NCBI GenBank assembly: GCA_965199675.1
Contig: CBDATI010000044.1
Span: 2,793-66,792, forward strand
Direction: 5' to 3'
Source of the DNA: Vicinamibacterales bacterium
GTDB lineage: Bacteria > Acidobacteriota > Vicinamibacteria > Vicinamibacterales > UBA8438
DNA: 64,000 nucleotides
The notes below the pieces were generated by a model. It was not told the origin of the DNA. It worked only from the letters and a program-made list of their open reading frames with translations, and did no database searches. Shown one piece after another: positions 10,365 to 42,072 of this stretch. Position 1 is the first letter of the stretch; each line of letters begins with the position of its first letter. Made by a program: the position numbers and the translations under genes.

Positions 10365-10668
10365 GCGGGCGGTGCGCCACTGGGCGACGTGGATCGGCGC
10401 GACGCAGCCCAATGTGCGGCGCATCATCTGGTTCGGTTCGCGGGTCAACGGCATCCCGTCACCGGGTAGCGACGTCGATATCTGTCTCGTGCTCGATCGG
10501 TCGGAGAAGCCGTTTCGCGAGCGGGCCGGCGATTACCTGCCGCTGGGCTTTCCGGTCGGCATGGACCTGTTTCCCTACACCCGCGGAGAATTCGAACGGC
10601 TGGAGCGCGACCACCCGTCGTGGCGCCGGGCCATCGCGGCCGGCGTGGATCTGCTGTCCGATCGTTGA
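10294..10668 (+). CDS. Minimal nucleotidyltransferase (MNT), partner of the HEPN protein
   Basis: FGSRVNGIPSPGSDVD (GS-x10-DxD) and DLFPYTRGE; overlaps the HEPN 3' end; start uncertain. Confidence 0.8.
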   Translation: MPSPAPNDSSTSLIVKSNNQATVERAVRHWATWIGATQPNVRRIIWFGSRVNGIPSPGSDVDICLVLDRSEKPFRERAGDYLPLGFPVGMDLFPYTRGEFERLERDHPSWRRAIAAGVDLLSDR

Positions 10669-10833
10669 CGGGCGTCGCGACGACCCGCTGGCCGCGCCGG
10701 GGCATCGCGGCCGGCGTGAATCTGCCCGCCCGACTCGCACCGTTTCCCGCGCGTACCGACGAAGGGCCGAACAGTCGTGCCCGGCCCTCGCCGAAATGCC
10801 CGCGTCGCGAGCCGATGACCACCCGCGTGCTGC

Positions 10834-11847
10834 CTACTCCTCCTCGTTGGCCAGCTCCCGCGCGCGCTCGCCGCCGAGGATGTTGGTCATGCTGTAGTTA
10901 CCCTCGTGGCAGGCGTACTCGAAGAGGTACGGCAGCTCGTCGGCGGGGAACGTCGTGAACGGGAACTCGCCCGAGAAGCTCTGCGTCCAGTGGGTGGGAT
11001 CGTCGACCGTGAACTCGTAGTTCACGGTGCCGGGACCGGTCCGCGTGAAGCGCTCGGTGACGGTGATGGTGTCGTCGTCACGGCCGTTGGCCATGCGCAG
11101 CAGGACGGGGTCGCCGCCCACGGCTCCCGCGTTGGCCTCGGTGCGCCGCAGGTTGGTGGTCTCGACGACGAGGGTGTCGCCCTCCCAGCGCCCCCGCGGG
11201 TCGCCGTGCCATTGGCGGATGCTCGTCGGCACATGCGCGCGCCCGTCGATGGGGATGATCCGGAAGTCGTGGATCATCTCGACGTAGATGGCGACGTACC
11301 CGGGCGTCTGCATGATCATGAAGTTGTTGTTGTAGGCGCTCGGCAGCATCGGCGGACCCGCCGACCACACCAGGCAGCGGTCGTTCAGTTCGAGGTCTTC
11401 CCACGAATCGAACGGCCCCTCGACGGGAAAGGCCGCATCGTGCGCCATCTTCCGGTCGGCGGCGTCGGCGGTCCGCGCCGGCAGCCGGCCGTTCGACGGA
11501 TCCGAGATCAGGGACGTCCGGCCGGTCGGCCGTGTGCCCCCGTCCAGCCAGAAGTTGTTGTAGCCGCCGACGTTGCCCCCCGCCACGGTGCGGCGCGGCG
11601 GCGCCACCAGCAGCGCCTGGTTGCGGTCGACCCGCGCCTGCTCCTGGGCCGCCACCTCCTCGTCGGTGAGGAACGCCTTGTCGCCCAGCGCCTCGGGGCG
11701 CTCGAGTGGCGTGATCGTCTTGTTCGTATAGGTGCCCTGCAGGTCCGGATCGCCCCAGGGTGTCCGCGGTGCGTCCTGGGCGACAGCCGCCGCCGGTACG
11801 AGCAGGAGCGCGGCCAAGGCGACCGCGCCGAAGCGTGTTCGAGTCAT
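10834..11847 (-). CDS. Exported uncharacterised protein, 'PRTPWGDPDLQG...WEGDTLVVET...EYACHE' family (paralog 1)
   Basis: Signal peptide; motifs shared with 36564-37808 and 37805-38701. Confidence 0.8.
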   Translation of the reverse strand: MTRTRFGAVALAALLLVPAAAVAQDAPRTPWGDPDLQGTYTNKTITPLERPEALGDKAFLTDEEVAAQEQARVDRNQALLVAPPRRTVAGGNVGGYNNFWLDGGTRPTGRTSLISDPSNGRLPARTADAADRKMAHDAAFPVEGPFDSWEDLELNDRCLVWSAGPPMLPSAYNNNFMIMQTPGYVAIYVEMIHDFRIIPIDGRAHVPTSIRQWHGDPRGRWEGDTLVVETTNLRRTEANAGAVGGDPVLLRMANGRDDDTITVTERFTRTGPGTVNYEFTVDDPTHWTQSFSGEFPFTTFPADELPYLFEYACHEGNYSMTNILGGERARELANEEE

Positions 11848-34326: not shown

Positions 34327-35379
34327 CTACTCCGGCCGGTGCGGCAGCAGCTCCCAGTACAGGTGGCCGCCCACGAGATCGCCGTCGTCGGTGGTGCGCG
34401 GCCGCCCCCCGAGCCGCAGGACGTCGCCCGCGAGGTGGTAGAGCCGTTCGGCGTCGGTCACCCCTTCGACGGGCCTCGTCCTTCCCTCCTGGTGGTGTAC
34501 GACGTACTGCGGATCCGCGTCCTCGTGAACGGTGAACCGCCCGAAGTACCCGCCGTACGTCCGGTAGGCGGCCATCGCCTCGGCCGGCGTGGGCGTCGCG
34601 TCCGCGTACGGCGTGCGCCCCTCGCGGGCCATCAGGTGCACCATCATGTGGCCGGTCGGCGTATAGATGATCCACGAGCCGGCGCGGCTGTCGTTCCGCT
34701 CCCCGCGCCAGAACTCACTGCCGCGATCCTCGTACCGGTCCGTGTAGAGGAGCTGGCGGAATCCGACGAAACGCTGCGCCTCGTCGGACAGCTCGGCGTC
34801 GGGCAGCCGCTCCCACACGACCTGGCGGTCGGCGTCGCCCTTCGTACCGTTGGCCGACGCCGGGGTGAGGATGAGCCGGTCGCCGTCGATGTCGTAGAAC
34901 CGCTTCGCGTCGACCTCGGCGCCGGGGTTCATCTGCCCGATCCGGTGGTGAATGAGGAATCTCCCCTCGTCGTCCTCGTCGACCCTGAATGGACCGAAGT
35001 ACGCCGTATAGCCTTCGAGCGCCCGCTGCGCCTCCTCCGGCGTCGGCGTACCGTCGGCGAACGGCTCCCGATCGAGCGGCATGACGTTGACCGCCATGTA
35101 CCCCGTGTCGCTGTAGGTGATGTACCCGAGCGAGTTGAAGTCCTCCATCGGGACCCACGCGCCGCTCTCGTCCTTGACGTTGCGCCCGACGAGCTGGTAC
35201 GTCCCGACAACGGGGCCGCGCGGCAGGCCGCTCCGCTCGGTCGCGTCCTCCGCCACCGCCACCGCGGCGGACGTGGCGCCGTCTTCCGCGGCCGGGACCG
35301 GCGGATCGGCGCAACCGCCGAACGCGAGGGGAAGGCACACGACGGCGGCGACGATCGGGGTGATGCTCCGGTTCCGCAT
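34327..35379 (-). CDS. Lipoprotein with two tandem lipocalin-like domains
   Basis: FGGC lipobox-like; two units with G(T/F)(Y/R)QL...G.I.Y...G.M...Y..YFG.F.V. Confidence 0.72.
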   Translation of the reverse strand: MRNRSITPIVAAVVCLPLAFGGCADPPVPAAEDGATSAAVAVAEDATERSGLPRGPVVGTYQLVGRNVKDESGAWVPMEDFNSLGYITYSDTGYMAVNVMPLDREPFADGTPTPEEAQRALEGYTAYFGPFRVDEDDEGRFLIHHRIGQMNPGAEVDAKRFYDIDGDRLILTPASANGTKGDADRQVVWERLPDAELSDEAQRFVGFRQLLYTDRYEDRGSEFWRGERNDSRAGSWIIYTPTGHMMVHLMAREGRTPYADATPTPAEAMAAYRTYGGYFGRFTVHEDADPQYVVHHQEGRTRPVEGVTDAERLYHLAGDVLRLGGRPRTTDDGDLVGGHLYWELLPHRPE

Positions 35380-35620
35380 GATGCTCCTCCTCCTTGCGCT
35401 CGGCTCAGGGGCGTCGAGTCGGCCGCCGGGCGCGACGACGTGACGACAGCCGCACAGAAGCCGTCCCGGCGTTCAGGTCGGCGCCGGCAGGGGTTAGCCC
35501 CCTGGCCGGAAGGGCGGCCCGGCCGCGATGGTATTCGCGAGCTACCGGGCGTCGCCCAGGCAGCTCGCTCGGCTCAGCCGGCCCCGGCCGAAGCCGCCGG
35601 GAGACGGCGGTCTCGTCCCT

Positions 35621-35995
35621 TCACCACGCCAGAGACAGCCCGCTCGCAGACGTGCTGACCTCCAGGTCCCGCCACGTCAGGGGCTCGACGAAAGCCGCCA
35701 CCCCGAGCACGGCGATCGCATAACCGACGACACCCTCGTCGAGCTCCCAGTTCTGCTTCGAGAAGCCCACCAGACCTCCGGCCGCCAGCAAGCCCGCGCC
35801 CAGCATGTACTGCCGCATGCGTTCGGTCCTGATCAGCCGCAGACGCTCCGGGTCGATCCGGTCTATCAGCAGGCCGCCGTCCGATTGCATCCGGGCGCCG
35901 GATTCCTCCAGGGCGGCCGGCGCCTGCGCCGCCGCCTGCGAGGCGCAGGCGCCGACGAGAATTGCCACCAGGCAAACCACGATTCCGTTACGCAT
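35621..35995 (-). CDS. Hypothetical membrane/exported protein
   Basis: Hydrophobic N-terminus (LVGAC) plus two hydrophobic segments; last gene of the minus-strand run. Confidence 0.5.
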   Translation of the reverse strand: MRNGIVVCLVAILVGACASQAAAQAPAALEESGARMQSDGGLLIDRIDPERLRLIRTERMRQYMLGAGLLAAGGLVGFSKQNWELDEGVVGYAIAVLGVAAFVEPLTWRDLEVSTSASGLSLAW

Positions 35996-36108: not shown

Positions 36109-36543
36109 CTACCGGGGCTCCGTCGGATCGCGGCCGTCGCGCGGAGCGCCCGTCCCCGACGAACCGAGGAACAGCTTGCTGCCGTCGGCGAAGGTCACGT
36201 CCCGGCCGTTGGCCTTGTTGGAGCCGTCCTTGGCCTGGAACCCCTCGACGAAGATCTCCGTGCCCGCCAGCAGCGAGCGGCGGTTGAAACCGCGCCGCAG
36301 CAGCGACGTGGGCGGCCCGCCCTCGATCATCCACCGCTCGGCGGAACCGTCCGGCTGCGCCACATCGATGTGAATCCAGGTGTGGGGATTCACCCACTCC
36401 ATCCTCACCACGGTCCCGGTCAGCTCGATCGGGGCGTCCGCGTCGAACTCCGCCGCGAACGCGTGGTGGGCCAGCGCCCGCCCCCCGGCGGCGGCGACGA
36501 GCCCCCCGAGAACAGCAATCGACACGACGGTTCGTGCTCGCAT
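36109..36543 (-). CDS. DUF6152-family exported protein
   Basis: ALA/HHAFAAEFD...GTVVRMEWVNPHTWI...WMIEGGPP...GF. Confidence 0.8.
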   Translation of the reverse strand: MRARTVVSIAVLGGLVAAAGGRALAHHAFAAEFDADAPIELTGTVVRMEWVNPHTWIHIDVAQPDGSAERWMIEGGPPTSLLRRGFNRRSLLAGTEIFVEGFQAKDGSNKANGRDVTFADGSKLFLGSSGTGAPRDGRDPTEPR

Positions 36544-36563
36544 CTCCGACCTCCTCCCGCCCT

Positions 36564-37808
36564 TCACTGACGGCCATCCTGCTGCCCGGCTTCCCACGCG
36601 TCGAGCAGCGCCCTCTTCTCGTCGAGCTCGCGACTGCGGATGGCCGCCTCGCGGGCCGCTTCGTCCAGCGCCCACGCCCGGTCGACCCGCGCCCCACGGA
36701 TGGCGTTCACCATGCCGTAGTTGTGCTCGTGGCACGCGTACTCGAACAGCCGGTCCTGGTTGCCCGCAGTCGCCCAGGCGTCGAGCGTGAAGTAGTTGAC
36801 GGTGGTGAAGGGCCGCACGAACACCGCCGGGTCCTCCACCGTGTAACGGTACTCGAGGGTCTCGGCGTCGAGGCGGCTGATGCGCTCGGTGAGACGCAGC
36901 GTCTCGCCGGTGCCCGGGTAGTAATGCACGTGGGCCGAGCCGCCGAACGGACCGCCGTGAGCCGGCACCACGGTGTTCACGGTGTTCTTGAAGTTGCCGG
37001 TCTCGACGACCAGCGTGTCGCCCTCCCAGCGGCCGGTCGAGTCGCCGTTCCACTGGCGGATGTCCGGCCCCAGGGGCCCCGGCGGGTCGTCGCCCTCGGT
37101 GCCGACGGGAATGATGCGGACGTAGCCGTAGGGCATCACGATGCTCACGTACCCGGGCGTCTGCACGATCTCCTTGAGCGGCTGCTGGCTGCTCCCCAGC
37201 ATCTCGCCGGGCAGGCCGTTCCGGGTGATGCACCGCTCGGACAGCCCGCGGTCCTCCCAGTCGTCGGCCTGGCTGCGCTCGCGCCTCGCCTCTTCGCGCG
37301 CCTCCCAGACGGCGAGGGCGTCGCGGGTCAGCGGCGGCATGCGCCCGTCGCTTGGATCGACGATCTGCGACGTGCGCAGGGAGATCGGAGGCGTGGTCGG
37401 GTCGGCGCTCCAGAACGCGTTGTACTCCGCGCCGGCGATGCGGTAGCCGGGCCGCCCGTCGTCGGGGGCGTCGGACCGCGCGTAGCGGGCCACGTCCTGC
37501 TGCACCAGCTCCTGCGCGACGGCGTCGTCGTCGTCATCGCTGACGACCCGGCGCAGCCCGAGGCGCTCGCGTTCGGCCGCCTCCTCCTCGGTCATGAACT
37601 CGCGCGTGCCGAACTCGGGCGGCCGCTCCATCGGCGTGTAGGTCCGGGTGTCCCACATGCCCTGCAGGTCCGGATCGCCCCACGGCGTCCGCGGCGCGGC
37701 GTACTCGGCCTGGCCGGGTTCCTGGGCCTGTCCCACCGCCGGCGCGGTTGCCCCCGCCGCGACCATCGCGATCGCCGCAGCCACGAGCGCGCATCCTCCA
37801 AGTCTCAC
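36564..37808 (-). CDS. Exported 'PRTPWGDPDLQG' family protein (paralog 2)
   Basis: GTG start overlapping the upstream TGA, with GGAGG upstream; PRTPWGDPDLQG, RWEGDTLVVET, EYACHEHNY. Confidence 0.82.
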   Translation of the reverse strand: MRLGGCALVAAAIAMVAAGATAPAVGQAQEPGQAEYAAPRTPWGDPDLQGMWDTRTYTPMERPPEFGTREFMTEEEAAERERLGLRRVVSDDDDDAVAQELVQQDVARYARSDAPDDGRPGYRIAGAEYNAFWSADPTTPPISLRTSQIVDPSDGRMPPLTRDALAVWEAREEARRERSQADDWEDRGLSERCITRNGLPGEMLGSSQQPLKEIVQTPGYVSIVMPYGYVRIIPVGTEGDDPPGPLGPDIRQWNGDSTGRWEGDTLVVETGNFKNTVNTVVPAHGGPFGGSAHVHYYPGTGETLRLTERISRLDAETLEYRYTVEDPAVFVRPFTTVNYFTLDAWATAGNQDRLFEYACHEHNYGMVNAIRGARVDRAWALDEAAREAAIRSRELDEKRALLDAWEAGQQDGRQ

Positions 37809-38701
37809 CGTCCACCTCCTTCCGGGTCGACGAGGCCCCCGTACACGTATTCCTCGGCGAGGTCCACGCACTTGAACTCGAGCAGCCGCAGGTCGTCCTC
37901 GATGCGGCGGTACAGCGGCAGGCGGATCGTCCAGTGGCGGGTGAAGACCTCGGGGTCGTCTATCGTCGCCTCGTACATCATGTGCCAGGGGCTGATGGGC
38001 GTGTACCGCTCCACGACCTCCATCGCCGCGCTGTGGTAGTTGCCGGCCCGGTCGAACCACGACAGATCGTTGAAGCCGCTCACCTCCACCACCAGCGTGT
38101 CCCCCTCCCAGCGCCCGTTCGACCAGCCCATCCAACTGTCGACCGGCGCCTCGCTGTCGCCGTTCAGGGGAATGGTGCGGCTGGCGCCCGCATACTGGTA
38201 GGCGATGATGACCTTCTCGGTGCTCTGGATGATCTGGAACGGGAACGGCATGTAGGTGGCCCGCGGCACCCCCGGCAGGTAGCACTTCGCCTCGGGGTCG
38301 CCGACCGTGTTGACGTTGTCGTGGTCGACCGCGAGCCGCCGCTCGAAGTTCTCCTGCTTGCGCGCGAGGGCCTCGGGCCGGTAGGGGATATCGTTGCCGA
38401 GGACCACGCCCCGCCCCGGCGGCTGCGCCCCCCAGACCCCGAGCAGCCGGGGGAACGGTCCCGCCTCGGCGCCGTGGTCCTGCAGGCTCCAGTTGGCGGT
38501 GGTGAACGCCTGCCAGATGCCGCTGATGTCGGGATGCTCCGTGCCCGGCAGTCGGGGCGCCGCGTACTCCGCTTCCGCGGTCTGGGCGAAGGCCGTCGAG
38601 GCCGACAGGCCCACCGTCGCCGTCACCACGACCGACGCCGCCGCGACCACCGACGCCGGAACCGACATGCGCCTGCGGACGACCCTGAACCGCGTGCCCA
38701 T
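37805..38701 (-). CDS. Exported protein of the same family (paralog 3)
   Basis: HPDISGIW, CYLPGVPR, WMGWSNGRWEGDTLVVEV, LEFKC; SD GAGGAGG. Confidence 0.82.
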   Translation of the reverse strand: MGTRFRVVRRRMSVPASVVAAASVVVTATVGLSASTAFAQTAEAEYAAPRLPGTEHPDISGIWQAFTTANWSLQDHGAEAGPFPRLLGVWGAQPPGRGVVLGNDIPYRPEALARKQENFERRLAVDHDNVNTVGDPEAKCYLPGVPRATYMPFPFQIIQSTEKVIIAYQYAGASRTIPLNGDSEAPVDSWMGWSNGRWEGDTLVVEVSGFNDLSWFDRAGNYHSAAMEVVERYTPISPWHMMYEATIDDPEVFTRHWTIRLPLYRRIEDDLRLLEFKCVDLAEEYVYGGLVDPEGGGR

Positions 38702-38975: not shown

Positions 38976-39809
38976 TCAGTCGCGGGTGATCTTCCCGATG
39001 ATGTAGCCGCCGGACCGCTCGTCGAGGTCGAGCTGCACGTAGCCGCGAGCCTGCGCCTCCTCGAGGAGGTCGTTGAACGACCGGAATCCGTAGGCCGACT
39101 CGTTGAAGCCGGGACGCCGGCGCTTGAGGGTCTGCTTGATCATCGACCCCCACAGCTTGGCCTGGTCGCCGCGCTCGGTGTAGATGGCCTCGGCCGTCTG
39201 AATCACGAGGTCGATGGCGGGCTGCACCGGGTCGTCCTGCTTCGCCGGCGCGGCGGCGGCCTTCTTGTGCTTCTCGTCCGACGACTTCCCGGTCGACTTC
39301 CCCCGCCCCTTGCCGCGCGGGCGGCGGCGGGCGGGCGGGCTCTCCGCCACGAGGTCGTCGTAGAAGATGAACTCGTCGCAGTTGTTGACGAGCAGGTCCG
39401 AGGTGGCCTTCTTCACCCCGACGCCGATGACCGCCTTGGCGTTCTCGCGCAGCTTGCTGACGAGGGGAGAGAAGTCGGAGTCGCCGGAGATGATCACGAA
39501 CGAGTCGATGTGCTCTTTCGTGTAGCACAGGTCGAGGGCGTCGACGACCATGCGGATGTCGGCCGAGTTCTTGCCCGACTGCCGGGCGTGGGGGATCTCG
39601 ATGAGCTCGAACGCCGCCTCGTGCATGGGCGCCTTGAACTCCTTGTAGCGATCCCAGTCGCAGTACGCCTTCTTGGCGACGATGCTGCCCTTCAGCAGCA
39701 GCCGCTCGAGGACCGGTCGCACGTCGAACCGCTTGAGGTCGGCGTCGCGGACCCCGAGGGCCACGTTCTCGAAGTCGCAGAAGACCGCCAGATTGCCGTC
39801 ACCGTTCAA
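38976..39809 (-). CDS. NYN-domain protein with C-terminal OST-HTH/LOTUS domain
   Basis: AVFCDFEN, GKNSADIRMVVD, SGDSDFSPL; FNESAYGFRSFNDLL. Confidence 0.9.
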   Translation of the reverse strand: MNGDGNLAVFCDFENVALGVRDADLKRFDVRPVLERLLLKGSIVAKKAYCDWDRYKEFKAPMHEAAFELIEIPHARQSGKNSADIRMVVDALDLCYTKEHIDSFVIISGDSDFSPLVSKLRENAKAVIGVGVKKATSDLLVNNCDEFIFYDDLVAESPPARRRPRGKGRGKSTGKSSDEKHKKAAAAPAKQDDPVQPAIDLVIQTAEAIYTERGDQAKLWGSMIKQTLKRRRPGFNESAYGFRSFNDLLEEAQARGYVQLDLDERSGGYIIGKITRD

Positions 39810-40002: not shown

Positions 40003-42072
40003 TCAGTGACCGTCGCCGGCCGGCAACCGCAGGGCCGCGAGCGACGCCGGGAAGACGCCGCCCTGCGCGATCTGCACGACGATGTACTGGTCGCCGTCGT
40101 GCTCGTAGGTCATCATGCCGTACTGGCCCGGCGCGGGCAGGTCGACGGTGCCGACGATTTCGCCCGTCGTCTTGTTGCGCGCATCGAGCACGGCCGGCCC
40201 GTTCATGCCCCGGGTGGTGAGCAGGAGGCTGCCGGTGACCATGGACACGGCCCGGCTGCCGCCGCCGACCCCGGTGAGGTCGATGCCCTGCAGGGCGGGG
40301 TGCCGCCGCATCCGCTCGGACGCCTCGCCCACCGGCTGCCACCACAGGTGCTCGCCGGTGTTCATGTCGATGGCGGTGATGCGGTTGTAGGGAGGCTTGT
40401 GCATCGGCAGCCCCTGGGGACCGCCCCAGCCGACGCCGCCGCCCTGCACCCAGTCGGACACCGTGGTGCCCGTCGTCCAGCAGTCGCCCTCGGACGACGT
40501 GCACGCGTGGGTGTCGCCGTCGGTGTTCGTGCCCGGCTGCACGAGCCGGCCCGAGCACTGCGGCCCCGACGGCTGGTAGAGGATGCCGGTGGTCGGGTCG
40601 AGGGCGGCCGGATTGGTGATGTTGAGCCCGCCGGAGCAGCCGATCCAGCCCTGGACCGGCTCGTTGTGGCCTTCCGGCAGGGGCGGCATGTAGGGTCCGC
40701 CAATCCGGAAGTTGCTCATGATCTCGAGCGCCTCGGCGCGCAGCTCGGGGGTGAAGTCGATGACGTTCTCCTCGGGCAGGCCGAGGGCCTCGAGGGGCGC
40801 GGGCCGGGTGGGGATGGGCTGGGTCGGCGAGAGCTGCTCGCCGGGCACCACCGAAGCCGGCACCTCGACCTCCTCGATCGGCCACACCGGCTCGCCGGTC
40901 TCGCGGTTGAACGCGAAGGTCAGGCCCTGCTTGGTGGTCTGGATGGCCATCGGCACGTCCTGGCCGTCGACGTTGACGTCCACGAGGATGGGCACGTTGG
41001 GCAGGTCGTAGTTCCAGATCGGGTGATGCACGGTCTGGAAGTGCCAAACCCGGTCACCAGTCTCGGCGTCGAGGGCGACGATGCTCGTCCCGAACAGGTT
41101 GTCCCCCGGCCTGAACCCGCCGTAGTAGTCGATGGTCGGCGCGTTCGTCGGAATGTAGACGATGCCCCGCTCGAGGTCAGCGGCGAGCGGCGCCCACGAC
41201 GACACGTCGCCGGTCCACCGCCATGCGTCGTTCTCCCAGGTGTCGAACCCGAACTCGCTCTCGGTCTGCGGAATGATGTTGAACTTCCACTTGAGCTGAC
41301 CGCTGCGGAGGTCGTAGCCGAGAATGTCGCCCGGCACGTTCTCGATGCGGCTCTGGCTGTACCCCTGCTCGTGCGAGTTGCCGACGACGATGGTGTCGTT
41401 GACCACGATGGGGGGCGACGAGTTGGTGATGTAGCCCAGGGTCGGGTCGAGCCCGCTGTAGGGGTCGTAGGGGTGGCCGAGGCCCGCCAGCAGATCGACG
41501 ACCCCCGTCTCCGGGAACCCGGGGACGTCCACCGGAGACCCGAACCCCTCGATGTGGTCGCCGGTCTTGGCGTCGAGCGCATGCAGGAAGAACGCCGGGG
41601 TCACGATGAAGATGACGCCCCGCCCGTCGACCTCGGCGTAGGCCACGCCCTTGCCGTAGGCGGCCCGCATCGACTGCTCCCACCGTTCGGTGTTCGGCTC
41701 GCGGTAGGTCCACAGCGTCTCGCCGGTGGCCGGGTCCATGGCCACCACCGTGCGCCGGTAGCCGGCCACGGTGTAGAGGACGCCGTCGATGTAGCTTGGC
41801 GTCGACCGCGACGCGTAGTTGGTGTGCGGGCTGTAGTTGTCGCCCCGCCACACCCACGCCACCTCGAGGTCCTCGAAGTTCCCGGCGTCGACCTGATCGA
41901 GCGGCGAGAACCGGGTACCCCAGGCGTCGCCGCTCTGGTACCACCATTCCCCGTGGGGCGTGCCCCGCTCCCGCTCCTGGGCGGCCGCGCCGGTGACGGC
42001 CAGGGCCACCGCCAGCAGGGTGATCCACGAGAGGCGTCCGGCGCCCCCGCGACGTCTTGCCTGTGCTCTCAT
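40003..42072 (-). CDS. Exported PQQ-binding dehydrogenase-like protein, glucose-dehydrogenase-like
   Basis: GDAWGTRFSPLDQV, STPSY, HHPIWNYDLP, KPPYNRITAIDM. Confidence 0.85.
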   Translation of the reverse strand: MRAQARRRGGAGRLSWITLLAVALAVTGAAAQERERGTPHGEWWYQSGDAWGTRFSPLDQVDAGNFEDLEVAWVWRGDNYSPHTNYASRSTPSYIDGVLYTVAGYRRTVVAMDPATGETLWTYREPNTERWEQSMRAAYGKGVAYAEVDGRGVIFIVTPAFFLHALDAKTGDHIEGFGSPVDVPGFPETGVVDLLAGLGHPYDPYSGLDPTLGYITNSSPPIVVNDTIVVGNSHEQGYSQSRIENVPGDILGYDLRSGQLKWKFNIIPQTESEFGFDTWENDAWRWTGDVSSWAPLAADLERGIVYIPTNAPTIDYYGGFRPGDNLFGTSIVALDAETGDRVWHFQTVHHPIWNYDLPNVPILVDVNVDGQDVPMAIQTTKQGLTFAFNRETGEPVWPIEEVEVPASVVPGEQLSPTQPIPTRPAPLEALGLPEENVIDFTPELRAEALEIMSNFRIGGPYMPPLPEGHNEPVQGWIGCSGGLNITNPAALDPTTGILYQPSGPQCSGRLVQPGTNTDGDTHACTSSEGDCWTTGTTVSDWVQGGGVGWGGPQGLPMHKPPYNRITAIDMNTGEHLWWQPVGEASERMRRHPALQGIDLTGVGGGSRAVSMVTGSLLLTTRGMNGPAVLDARNKTTGEIVGTVDLPAPGQYGMMTYEHDGDQYIVVQIAQGGVFPASLAALRLPAGDGH

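Follow-up and report, generated by a model that had tools for sequence, protein, structure and literature searches.

The DNA considered here is a window of 64,000 nucleotides from a Vicinamibacterales bacterium (Acidobacteriota; assembly GCA_965199675.1, contig CBDATI010000044.1), which carries on its minus strand, at 36109-38701, three tightly coupled genes, here called A, B and C, the last of which encodes a DUF6152 protein with two adjacent histidines at its predicted mature N-terminus. Gene A (P0001, 298 aa; 37805..38701) runs from an ATG at 38701 to a TGA stop at 37807-37805, gene B (P0002, 414 aa; 36564..37808) from a GTG at 37808 to a TGA stop at 36566-36564, and gene C (P0003, 144 aa; 36109..36543) from an ATG at 36543 to a TAG stop at 36111-36109. 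The start of B and the stop of A share a GTGA overlap, and a spacer of exactly 20 nt (agggcgggaggaggtcggag) separates B from C. An AGGAGG/GGAGG Shine-Dalgarno site lies 5-8 nt before each of the three starts, the products of A and B begin with hydrophobic signal-like N-termini, and export signals are predicted for all three products. A consensus terminator scan gave no terminator within the three-gene unit, and placed a strong minus-strand terminator at 39918-39886, 3' of the upstream gene for a pyrroloquinoline quinone (PQQ) dehydrogenase. Judged from this layout, genes A, B and C form one tightly coupled transcription unit, and the coordinates and anatomy given in the original prediction, that of three linked exported genes with a GTGA overlap and a 20-nt gap, are exact. 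The arrangement is far beyond chance because the identical gene order recurs in dozens of genomes.

Gene C matches Pfam PF19649 (DUF6152) far above the gathering threshold, as had been proposed (107.7 bits, where the cut-off is 27; E 3.4e-31; positions 2-95 of the 98 in the profile). Its N-terminus reads MRARTVVSIAVLGGLVAAAGGRALA followed by HHAFAAEFD, with a predicted cut after A23-L24-A25 and with N52-P53-H54 further on, just as first described, the cut itself being a prediction. From sequence and alignment the codons of H26-H27, the predicted first two mature residues, are at 36463..36468, and those of N52-P53-H54, which alignment and model place in the loop between OB-fold strands 1 and 2 and which offer a candidate third metal ligand, at 36382..36390 (both minus strand). 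Conservation was followed across 143 aligned DUF6152 copies, of which 14 from this genome and 29 from a Rhodospirillaceae metagenome-assembled genome (MAG) were found with the Pfam model and so are unbiased for His-His, and the other 100 were drawn from 80 loci retrieved by pattern searches, His-His being part of one pattern. H26, H27, P53 and H54 are each present in 143/143, so that the His-His pair on whose conservation the original prediction leaned proves invariant, with W71 kept in 142, N52 in 140, E74 in 137 and D34 in 133 of the 143. The residue at −1 to His-His is A, G, S or T in 143/143, and such a small residue in all copies is compatible with a cut by signal peptidase I; mature DUF6152 is accordingly predicted to begin at His26. 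Three distant gammaproteobacterial copies (A, then HHGW...NPH) share the His-His and NPH features.

An AlphaFold2 model of gene C built on 20 sequences has a mean predicted local distance difference test score (pLDDT) of 82.1, exceeding 90 over residues 31-125. A short helix, three strands, a second helix and two to three further strands make up what the model presents as a five-strand oligonucleotide/oligosaccharide-binding (OB) fold barrel with one helix, and the only folds that a comparison with the PDB brought up were generic OB-folds, those of SSB, PriB and the LysRS N-domain (E about 2e-3). H54 at the start of strand 2 and E74 at the end of strand 3 are on neighbouring antiparallel strands, and in this model would be expected at one and the same end of the barrel. 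The C-terminal tail of DUF6152 (LFLGSSGTGAPRDGRDPTEPR; 36112..36177, minus strand) is conserved and has a pLDDT of about 50. Its GSSGTGAP is invariant among close homologues, and the motif LF(L/M)GSSGTGAP occurs in 7/14 of the DUF6152 paralogues of this genome, these being exactly those that stand beside core-clade genes of the gene A type, and so the tail is possibly a docking peptide for the gene A barrel described below. PDB sequence searches with a single DUF6152 protein and with a DUF6152 alignment profile gave signal-peptide or chance matches only, and NCBIfam and PHROGs gave for A, B and C nothing beyond a sub-threshold Mfer763 match. PF19649 is a family without an assigned function, a literature search found no paper naming DUF6152, and PDB sequence and profile searches found a solved structure neither for it nor for the barrel family, which bears out the earlier description of the module as undescribed.

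The products of genes A and B are paralogous (BLASTP 2e-12), have in common an AEYAAPR.P....PD(I/L).G.W motif, and are without a Pfam, NCBIfam or PHROG family match (Pfam and NCBIfam to E 1). Their earlier placement in one family holds in that they are paralogues, and fails in that they are not equivalent, gene A belonging to a small subfamily (P1) that is always accompanied by DUF6152 and gene B to a huge and mostly solitary one (P2). Gene A has a signal peptide of about residues 1-39, the PD(I/L)xGxW motif, and cysteines at C140 and C278 (LEFKC). Its export by the twin-arginine route, considered for an RRR in the signal, is disfavoured, its paralogues having plain Sec-type signals. Gene B shows a PRTPWGDPDLQGMW motif, an R192-C193 pair and an E356-x-x-C359-H360-E361-x-N363 motif, the E-x-x-C-H-E-x-N being invariant in B-type proteins (65 paralogues) and missing in A-type ones; orthologues of gene B, 55-91% identical to it, lack any Pfam domain and go by the name ‘hypothetical protein’. 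The AlphaFold2 model of gene A (72-sequence alignment; mean pLDDT 86.4, predicted template modelling score 0.80) has an N-terminal elaboration of 100 residues, eight main antiparallel strands (155-159, 163-168, 174-179, 193-199, 202-208, 228-237, 240-248 and 257-265) and a C-terminal helix (278-290). The best PDB folds found by Foldseek were CRBP1, FABP5 and CRABP2, at E 1.5e-3 and a target-normalised template modelling score (TM-score) of 0.5-0.58, and with these weak scores the modelled fold is best described as a calycin-like barrel of the lipocalin or fatty-acid-binding protein (FABP) kind. A P1 profile of the 72 sequences run against PDB sequences gave only signal-peptide or chance matches. 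In the model the invariant P57 and G61-x-W63 of the gene A PDLxGxW motif are on the first strand, where the G-x-W resembles the SCR1 signature of lipocalins. Invariant polar residues in the P1 alignment are H76, Y107, R147, R175, E231, R232, Y243 and D249.

The central cysteine and the C-terminal EYAC/EFKC cysteine first remarked upon in the large proteins are indeed kept. Among the 72 gene A orthologues C140 is invariant and C278 is present in at least 90%, and in the B-type proteins C193 and C359 (EYAC) are found in 65/65 paralogues of this genome. In the gene A model C278 opens the C-terminal helix, and C140 belongs to the N-terminal segment. Both cysteines persist in the most divergent of the barrels that are fused to DUF6152, although the surrounding motif residues change there, and for this joint retention a role of the pair as metal ligands was rejected in favour of a disulfide. 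Most likely C140-C278 is a structural disulfide that would tie the C-terminal helix to the N-terminal segment.

That DUF6152 is a partner of the large proteins, as originally suggested, is upheld by gene adjacency, co-occurrence and natural fusions. In 80 loci of public genomes (Vicinamibacterales, Bryobacterales, Holophagales, Gemmatimonadota, Porticoccaceae and other Gammaproteobacteria, and Rhodospirillaceae), which span four phylum-level groups, namely Acidobacteriota, Gemmatimonadota, Gamma- and Alphaproteobacteria, DUF6152 has a same-strand P1 gene no more than 2 kb away in 69/80, a P2 gene in 57/80 and either in 76/80, the commonest order being P1-P2-DUF6152 as in the window. Across 151 evenly sampled genomes of the phylum one family is almost never present without the other, 13 genomes having both, one DUF6152 only and 137 neither (Fisher's exact p 7e-18), and the DUF6152-only genome has merely a weak 38-bit match. 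Genomes with a single DUF6152 copy have it in the identical three-gene order; among Gammaproteobacteria DUF6152 was found in 4/201 sampled genomes. Sixteen open reading frames carry both domains, and 14 of these run in the order signal peptide, His-His, DUF6152, a linker of 50-70 residues and the barrel core. The two exceptions to this order are from long-read MAGs, and one of them (L061) sits in a stretch where the frame is clearly broken and has an entire signal peptide immediately in front of His-His; because that internal signal peptide precedes the histidines, its DUF6152 is really a separate gene. The fusions argue for a physical cooperation of DUF6152 and barrel, and the DUF6152-first order, which keeps His-His at a free N-terminus, is what would be expected if the alpha-amino group is a ligand. 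The pairing of P1 with DUF6152 is close to certain.

Both families are greatly expanded. A gene A profile collects 16,923 cluster representatives at 50% identity with E<=1e-3, and 9,272 at 1e-10, for a barrel family that has no Pfam model. In this 5.3-Mb genome there are 14 DUF6152 genes, and 12 P1-type and 76 P2-type barrel genes after removal of overlaps; a relative has 30 DUF6152 copies and a 3.5-Mb Rhodospirillaceae MAG has 61. The copies in multi-copy genomes are mostly paired with a barrel, and such high and mostly barrel-paired copy numbers fit substrate-specific modules. In a maximum-likelihood tree of 85 barrel paralogues of this genome (13 P1-type rows and 72 P2-clade rows) all 13 P1-type rows are beside a DUF6152 gene, compared with 10/72 rows of the P2 clade, over which these ten are scattered. 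By this distribution P1 is the dedicated DUF6152 partner, whereas P2 genes have been drawn into the operon out of an expanded clade that is largely independent of DUF6152.

Some further copies of the two families were seen beside these. A second P2-type barrel paralogue lies in the window at ~10459-11847 (minus strand) and is 37% identical to gene B over 381 residues, and a near-identical copy of it is found at the start of another contig of the genome (C59). In the Rhodospirillaceae MAG (G002, loci L085-L104) the expansion is extreme, many DUF6152 domains being fused to or adjoining very divergent barrel domains. Outside the window, two divergent DUF6152 copies of this genome (G000) with the mature start HHSHGNY, at C10:333503-333862(+) and C20:101234-101629(-), have no adjacent P1, and each adjoins a homologous exported protein, of 221 aa in C20 and, as called, of up to 294 aa in C10. 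The 221-aa protein has no Pfam match, and the C20 copy of DUF6152 also adjoins a c-type cytochrome (Cytochrome_CBB3 and cytochrome c' domains). The exported neighbour may be a second kind of DUF6152 partner, one with a redox link.

A metal-binding mature N-terminal histidine has clear precedents. In the histidine brace it holds Cu in lytic polysaccharide monooxygenases (LPMOs) and CopC (PMC10952591), and YcnI is a further case of metal binding by an N-terminal His (PMC8424229). The signal-strapping families of 2025, DUF4198 (Ni), DUF6702 and the anglerases Ang-1 and Ang-2, are N-terminal His metal binders (PMC12537917), a DUF4198 protein is the zinc-capture protein Zcp (PMC12663993), and the metal bound by the periplasmic proteins of this N-terminal-His kind that were characterised in 2025 is Ni, Co, Cu or Zn (PMC12537917, PMC12663993). 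Like the histidine-brace copper proteins (LPMOs AA9-AA17, CopC, YcnI, X325/Bim1), DUF6152 is exported and has a predicted mature His1 and a further invariant histidine, H54. Their folds are of the beta-sandwich, immunoglobulin-like or cupredoxin-like sort, in contrast to the modelled OB-fold of DUF6152, which in addition has two adjacent N-terminal histidines and pairs with a calycin-like barrel. Membership of the LPMO, CopC or YcnI families was rejected for the five-strand OB-fold model and its PDB matches. We know of no OB-fold that carries a histidine-brace-like centre. Similarly the signal-strapping families are secreted bacterial proteins with a His as first mature residue (predicted for DUF6152) and were domains of unknown function until 2025, and they differ in being beta-sandwiches or a distinct fold, with permease or peptidase partners rather than a barrel. 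Gene C was also rejected as a DUF4198, DUF6702 or anglerase protein, the Pfam scan giving DUF6152 only, and DUF6152 has 0 occurrences in the paper on those families (PMC12537917). At its putative metal site DUF6152 may nevertheless function as all these proteins do.

Closer in fold, at least in the model, are proteins from outside the N-terminal-His group. CusF is a periplasmic OB-fold chaperone of the Cus system that carries Cu(I)/Ag(I) through an internal His, two Met and a Trp, works with the CusCBA pump and is single-copy. DUF6152 resembles it as a small periplasmic OB-fold protein with a Trp (that of CusF being near the metal site), and differs in having its candidate site at the N-terminus; no sequence similarity between the two was detected. 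With the calycins (lipocalins and the FABP/CRBP/CRABP proteins) P1 has in common, as modelled, the eight-strand antiparallel barrel and a C-terminal helix, and it is set apart from them by the lack of a Pfam or NCBIfam match, the extra N-terminal part of 100 residues, the conserved putative disulfide and the OB-fold partner. The likeness of A and B to calycins would thus be one of fold only.

The reading we favour, at a probability of roughly 0.45, is that the three genes specify a periplasmic module in which DUF6152 holds a metal at its N-terminal histidine and is paired with a ligand-holding P1 barrel, the P2 gene being inserted between the two. After Sec export, signal peptidase I would cut behind Ala25 to make His26 residue 1, the amino group and imidazole of which, together with His27 and/or His54 and perhaps Glu74, would chelate a transition-metal ion in a site akin to the histidine brace or to other N-terminal-His chelates. 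The barrel would hold a small and probably hydrophobic or amphipathic ligand, and DUF6152, possibly through its GSSGTGAP tail, would dock on it so as to present the metal tip at the barrel mouth for binding of the ligand or for chemistry. That DUF6152 binds metal seems somewhat better than an even bet, and chemistry on a barrel-held ligand is much less sure. Copper is one candidate metal among several, and is not privileged because the N-terminal-His precedents bind differing metals. High copy number and the obligate barrel partner argue against simple metal homeostasis and for substrate-specific modules. Taken further, this reading would lead to a two-part periplasmic metalloenzyme in which a histidine-brace-like centre on an OB-fold, docked on a calycin-type barrel, oxidises or otherwise transforms the hydrophobic molecule held there, and such an extension we regard as unlikely.

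Several observations weigh against the module as drawn. No copper or nickel homeostasis genes (CopD, P-type ATPases, CopA-type oxidases) were seen in the DUF6152 loci. The matches to the calycin fold are weak (E about 1e-3, target-normalised TM-score about 0.5), and the gene C model is least sure precisely at the His-His tip, over residues 21-30, where its pLDDT is about 67. Moreover ~62/72 of the P2-clade barrels have no DUF6152 nearby, and so the barrel evidently can work without one.

Clustering of the neighbours at 114 loci, in which several small clusters are antisense-frame artefacts of the gene caller (which is based on GC content at the third codon position, GC3), shows only PQQ dehydrogenases recurring at notable frequency. 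Other clusters are found in at most 13 loci each, and comprise a protein with a cytochrome-c motif (c3), an ABC ATPase, a TonB-receptor-like protein, an ankyrin protein and acyl-CoA-related enzymes. In the window the PQQ-dependent dehydrogenase (PF01011, E 2e-159) is at 40003-42072 on the minus strand, 1.3 kb upstream of the operon. Between it and the operon a cytoplasmic NYN-domain protein with a weak OST-HTH/LOTUS match is encoded at 38976-39809 (minus strand), with no evident link to the module. Downstream of DUF6152, at 34327-35995 (minus strand), are genes for a 124-aa protein (a weak SPW-repeat match, below the cut-off) and for a 350-aa lipoprotein-like double Lipocalin_5 protein (PF13924), and the order of this pair is retained, at 89% identity, in a relative (L004). 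A relationship of the barrel family to this Lipocalin_5 protein was considered and rejected (hhalign probability 0.2%).

Among the alternatives, DUF6152 could be a mere periplasmic metal chaperone or scavenger of the CopC, YcnI, CusF or DUF4198 type, with barrels that just happen to be nearby or that act as plain carriers, and without any chemistry on a ligand. Its small size, its export and its invariant, predicted N-terminal His would suit such a task, for which DUF4198, DUF6702 and YcnI are non-enzymatic precedents and CusF shows that a periplasmic OB-fold can carry metal, but 14 to 61 copies per genome are far above the needs of metal homeostasis, the neighbour clustering shows no transporter or efflux partner recurring nearby, and the barrel pairing is obligate and in some genomes a fusion; we therefore hold a chaperone role to be distinctly unlikely. 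The histidines might instead not be a site for free metal at all, and the His-His tip could contact the barrel ligand directly, ligating for instance a tetrapyrrole axially in the manner of haemophores and nitrobindins, or serve in acid/base catalysis or docking. Some calycin-type barrels bind haem or other tetrapyrroles, and P1 has its set of invariant polar residues (H76 through D249) that could serve such a ligand. However the fusions retain His-His at a free N-terminus, which is the hallmark of alpha-amino chelation and is unneeded for an axial ligand, and no haem-uptake or haem-synthesis genes were seen nearby, so that we give a tip of this kind a minor, though not negligible, chance.

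A third possibility draws on the neighbourhood, in that the module could serve periplasmic PQQ dehydrogenases, with the barrels delivering or removing hydrophobic substrates and DUF6152 as a small redox or metal carrier. Beyond the dehydrogenase upstream of the operon itself, PQQ dehydrogenases are found in 16/80 related loci, with 18/19 on the strand of the module; barrels of this genome are within 3 kb of a PQQ-type gene ~2-3 times as often as random points (for P2, 17/76 against 9.3%, p 5e-4), and of the 41 genes that directly flank a solitary P2 gene on its own strand, eight encode PQQ_2 propellers. The tie to PQQ enzymes is thus genuine, though modest. It is present in only a fifth of loci, the genome has ~74 PQQ-type genes and so proximity is partly an effect of density, the strong terminator noted above stands between the PQQ gene and the operon, and in single-copy genomes the trio is kept but has no constant PQQ neighbour, all of which makes service to the dehydrogenases improbable as the purpose of the module. 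Least probable of all is that these are structural or envelope proteins with neither ligand nor metal to handle, His-His being kept for processing or folding: residues such as the invariant H, H, N-P-H, W and E typically serve in binding, the barrel is a ligand-binding fold, and large sets of diverging paralogues fit varied specificities.

Both families are very large and without experimental study, and some bacteria give dozens of genes to the pair. If the metal-holding module proposed here is true, the N-terminal-histidine metal chemistry of LPMOs, CopC and the 2025 families would reach a new scaffold, the OB-fold, and a partner of small-molecule-binding type, sometimes fused, would also be new for N-terminal-His metalloproteins; an annotation would then be at hand for proteins that environmental genomes list, by the tens of thousands, as hypothetical. 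Should the module further be a metalloenzyme, then the 14-61 pairs per genome and the ~76 solitary barrels of this one would amount to a set of catabolic tools, diversified by substrate, in soil and marine Acidobacteriota, Gemmatimonadota and Proteobacteria.

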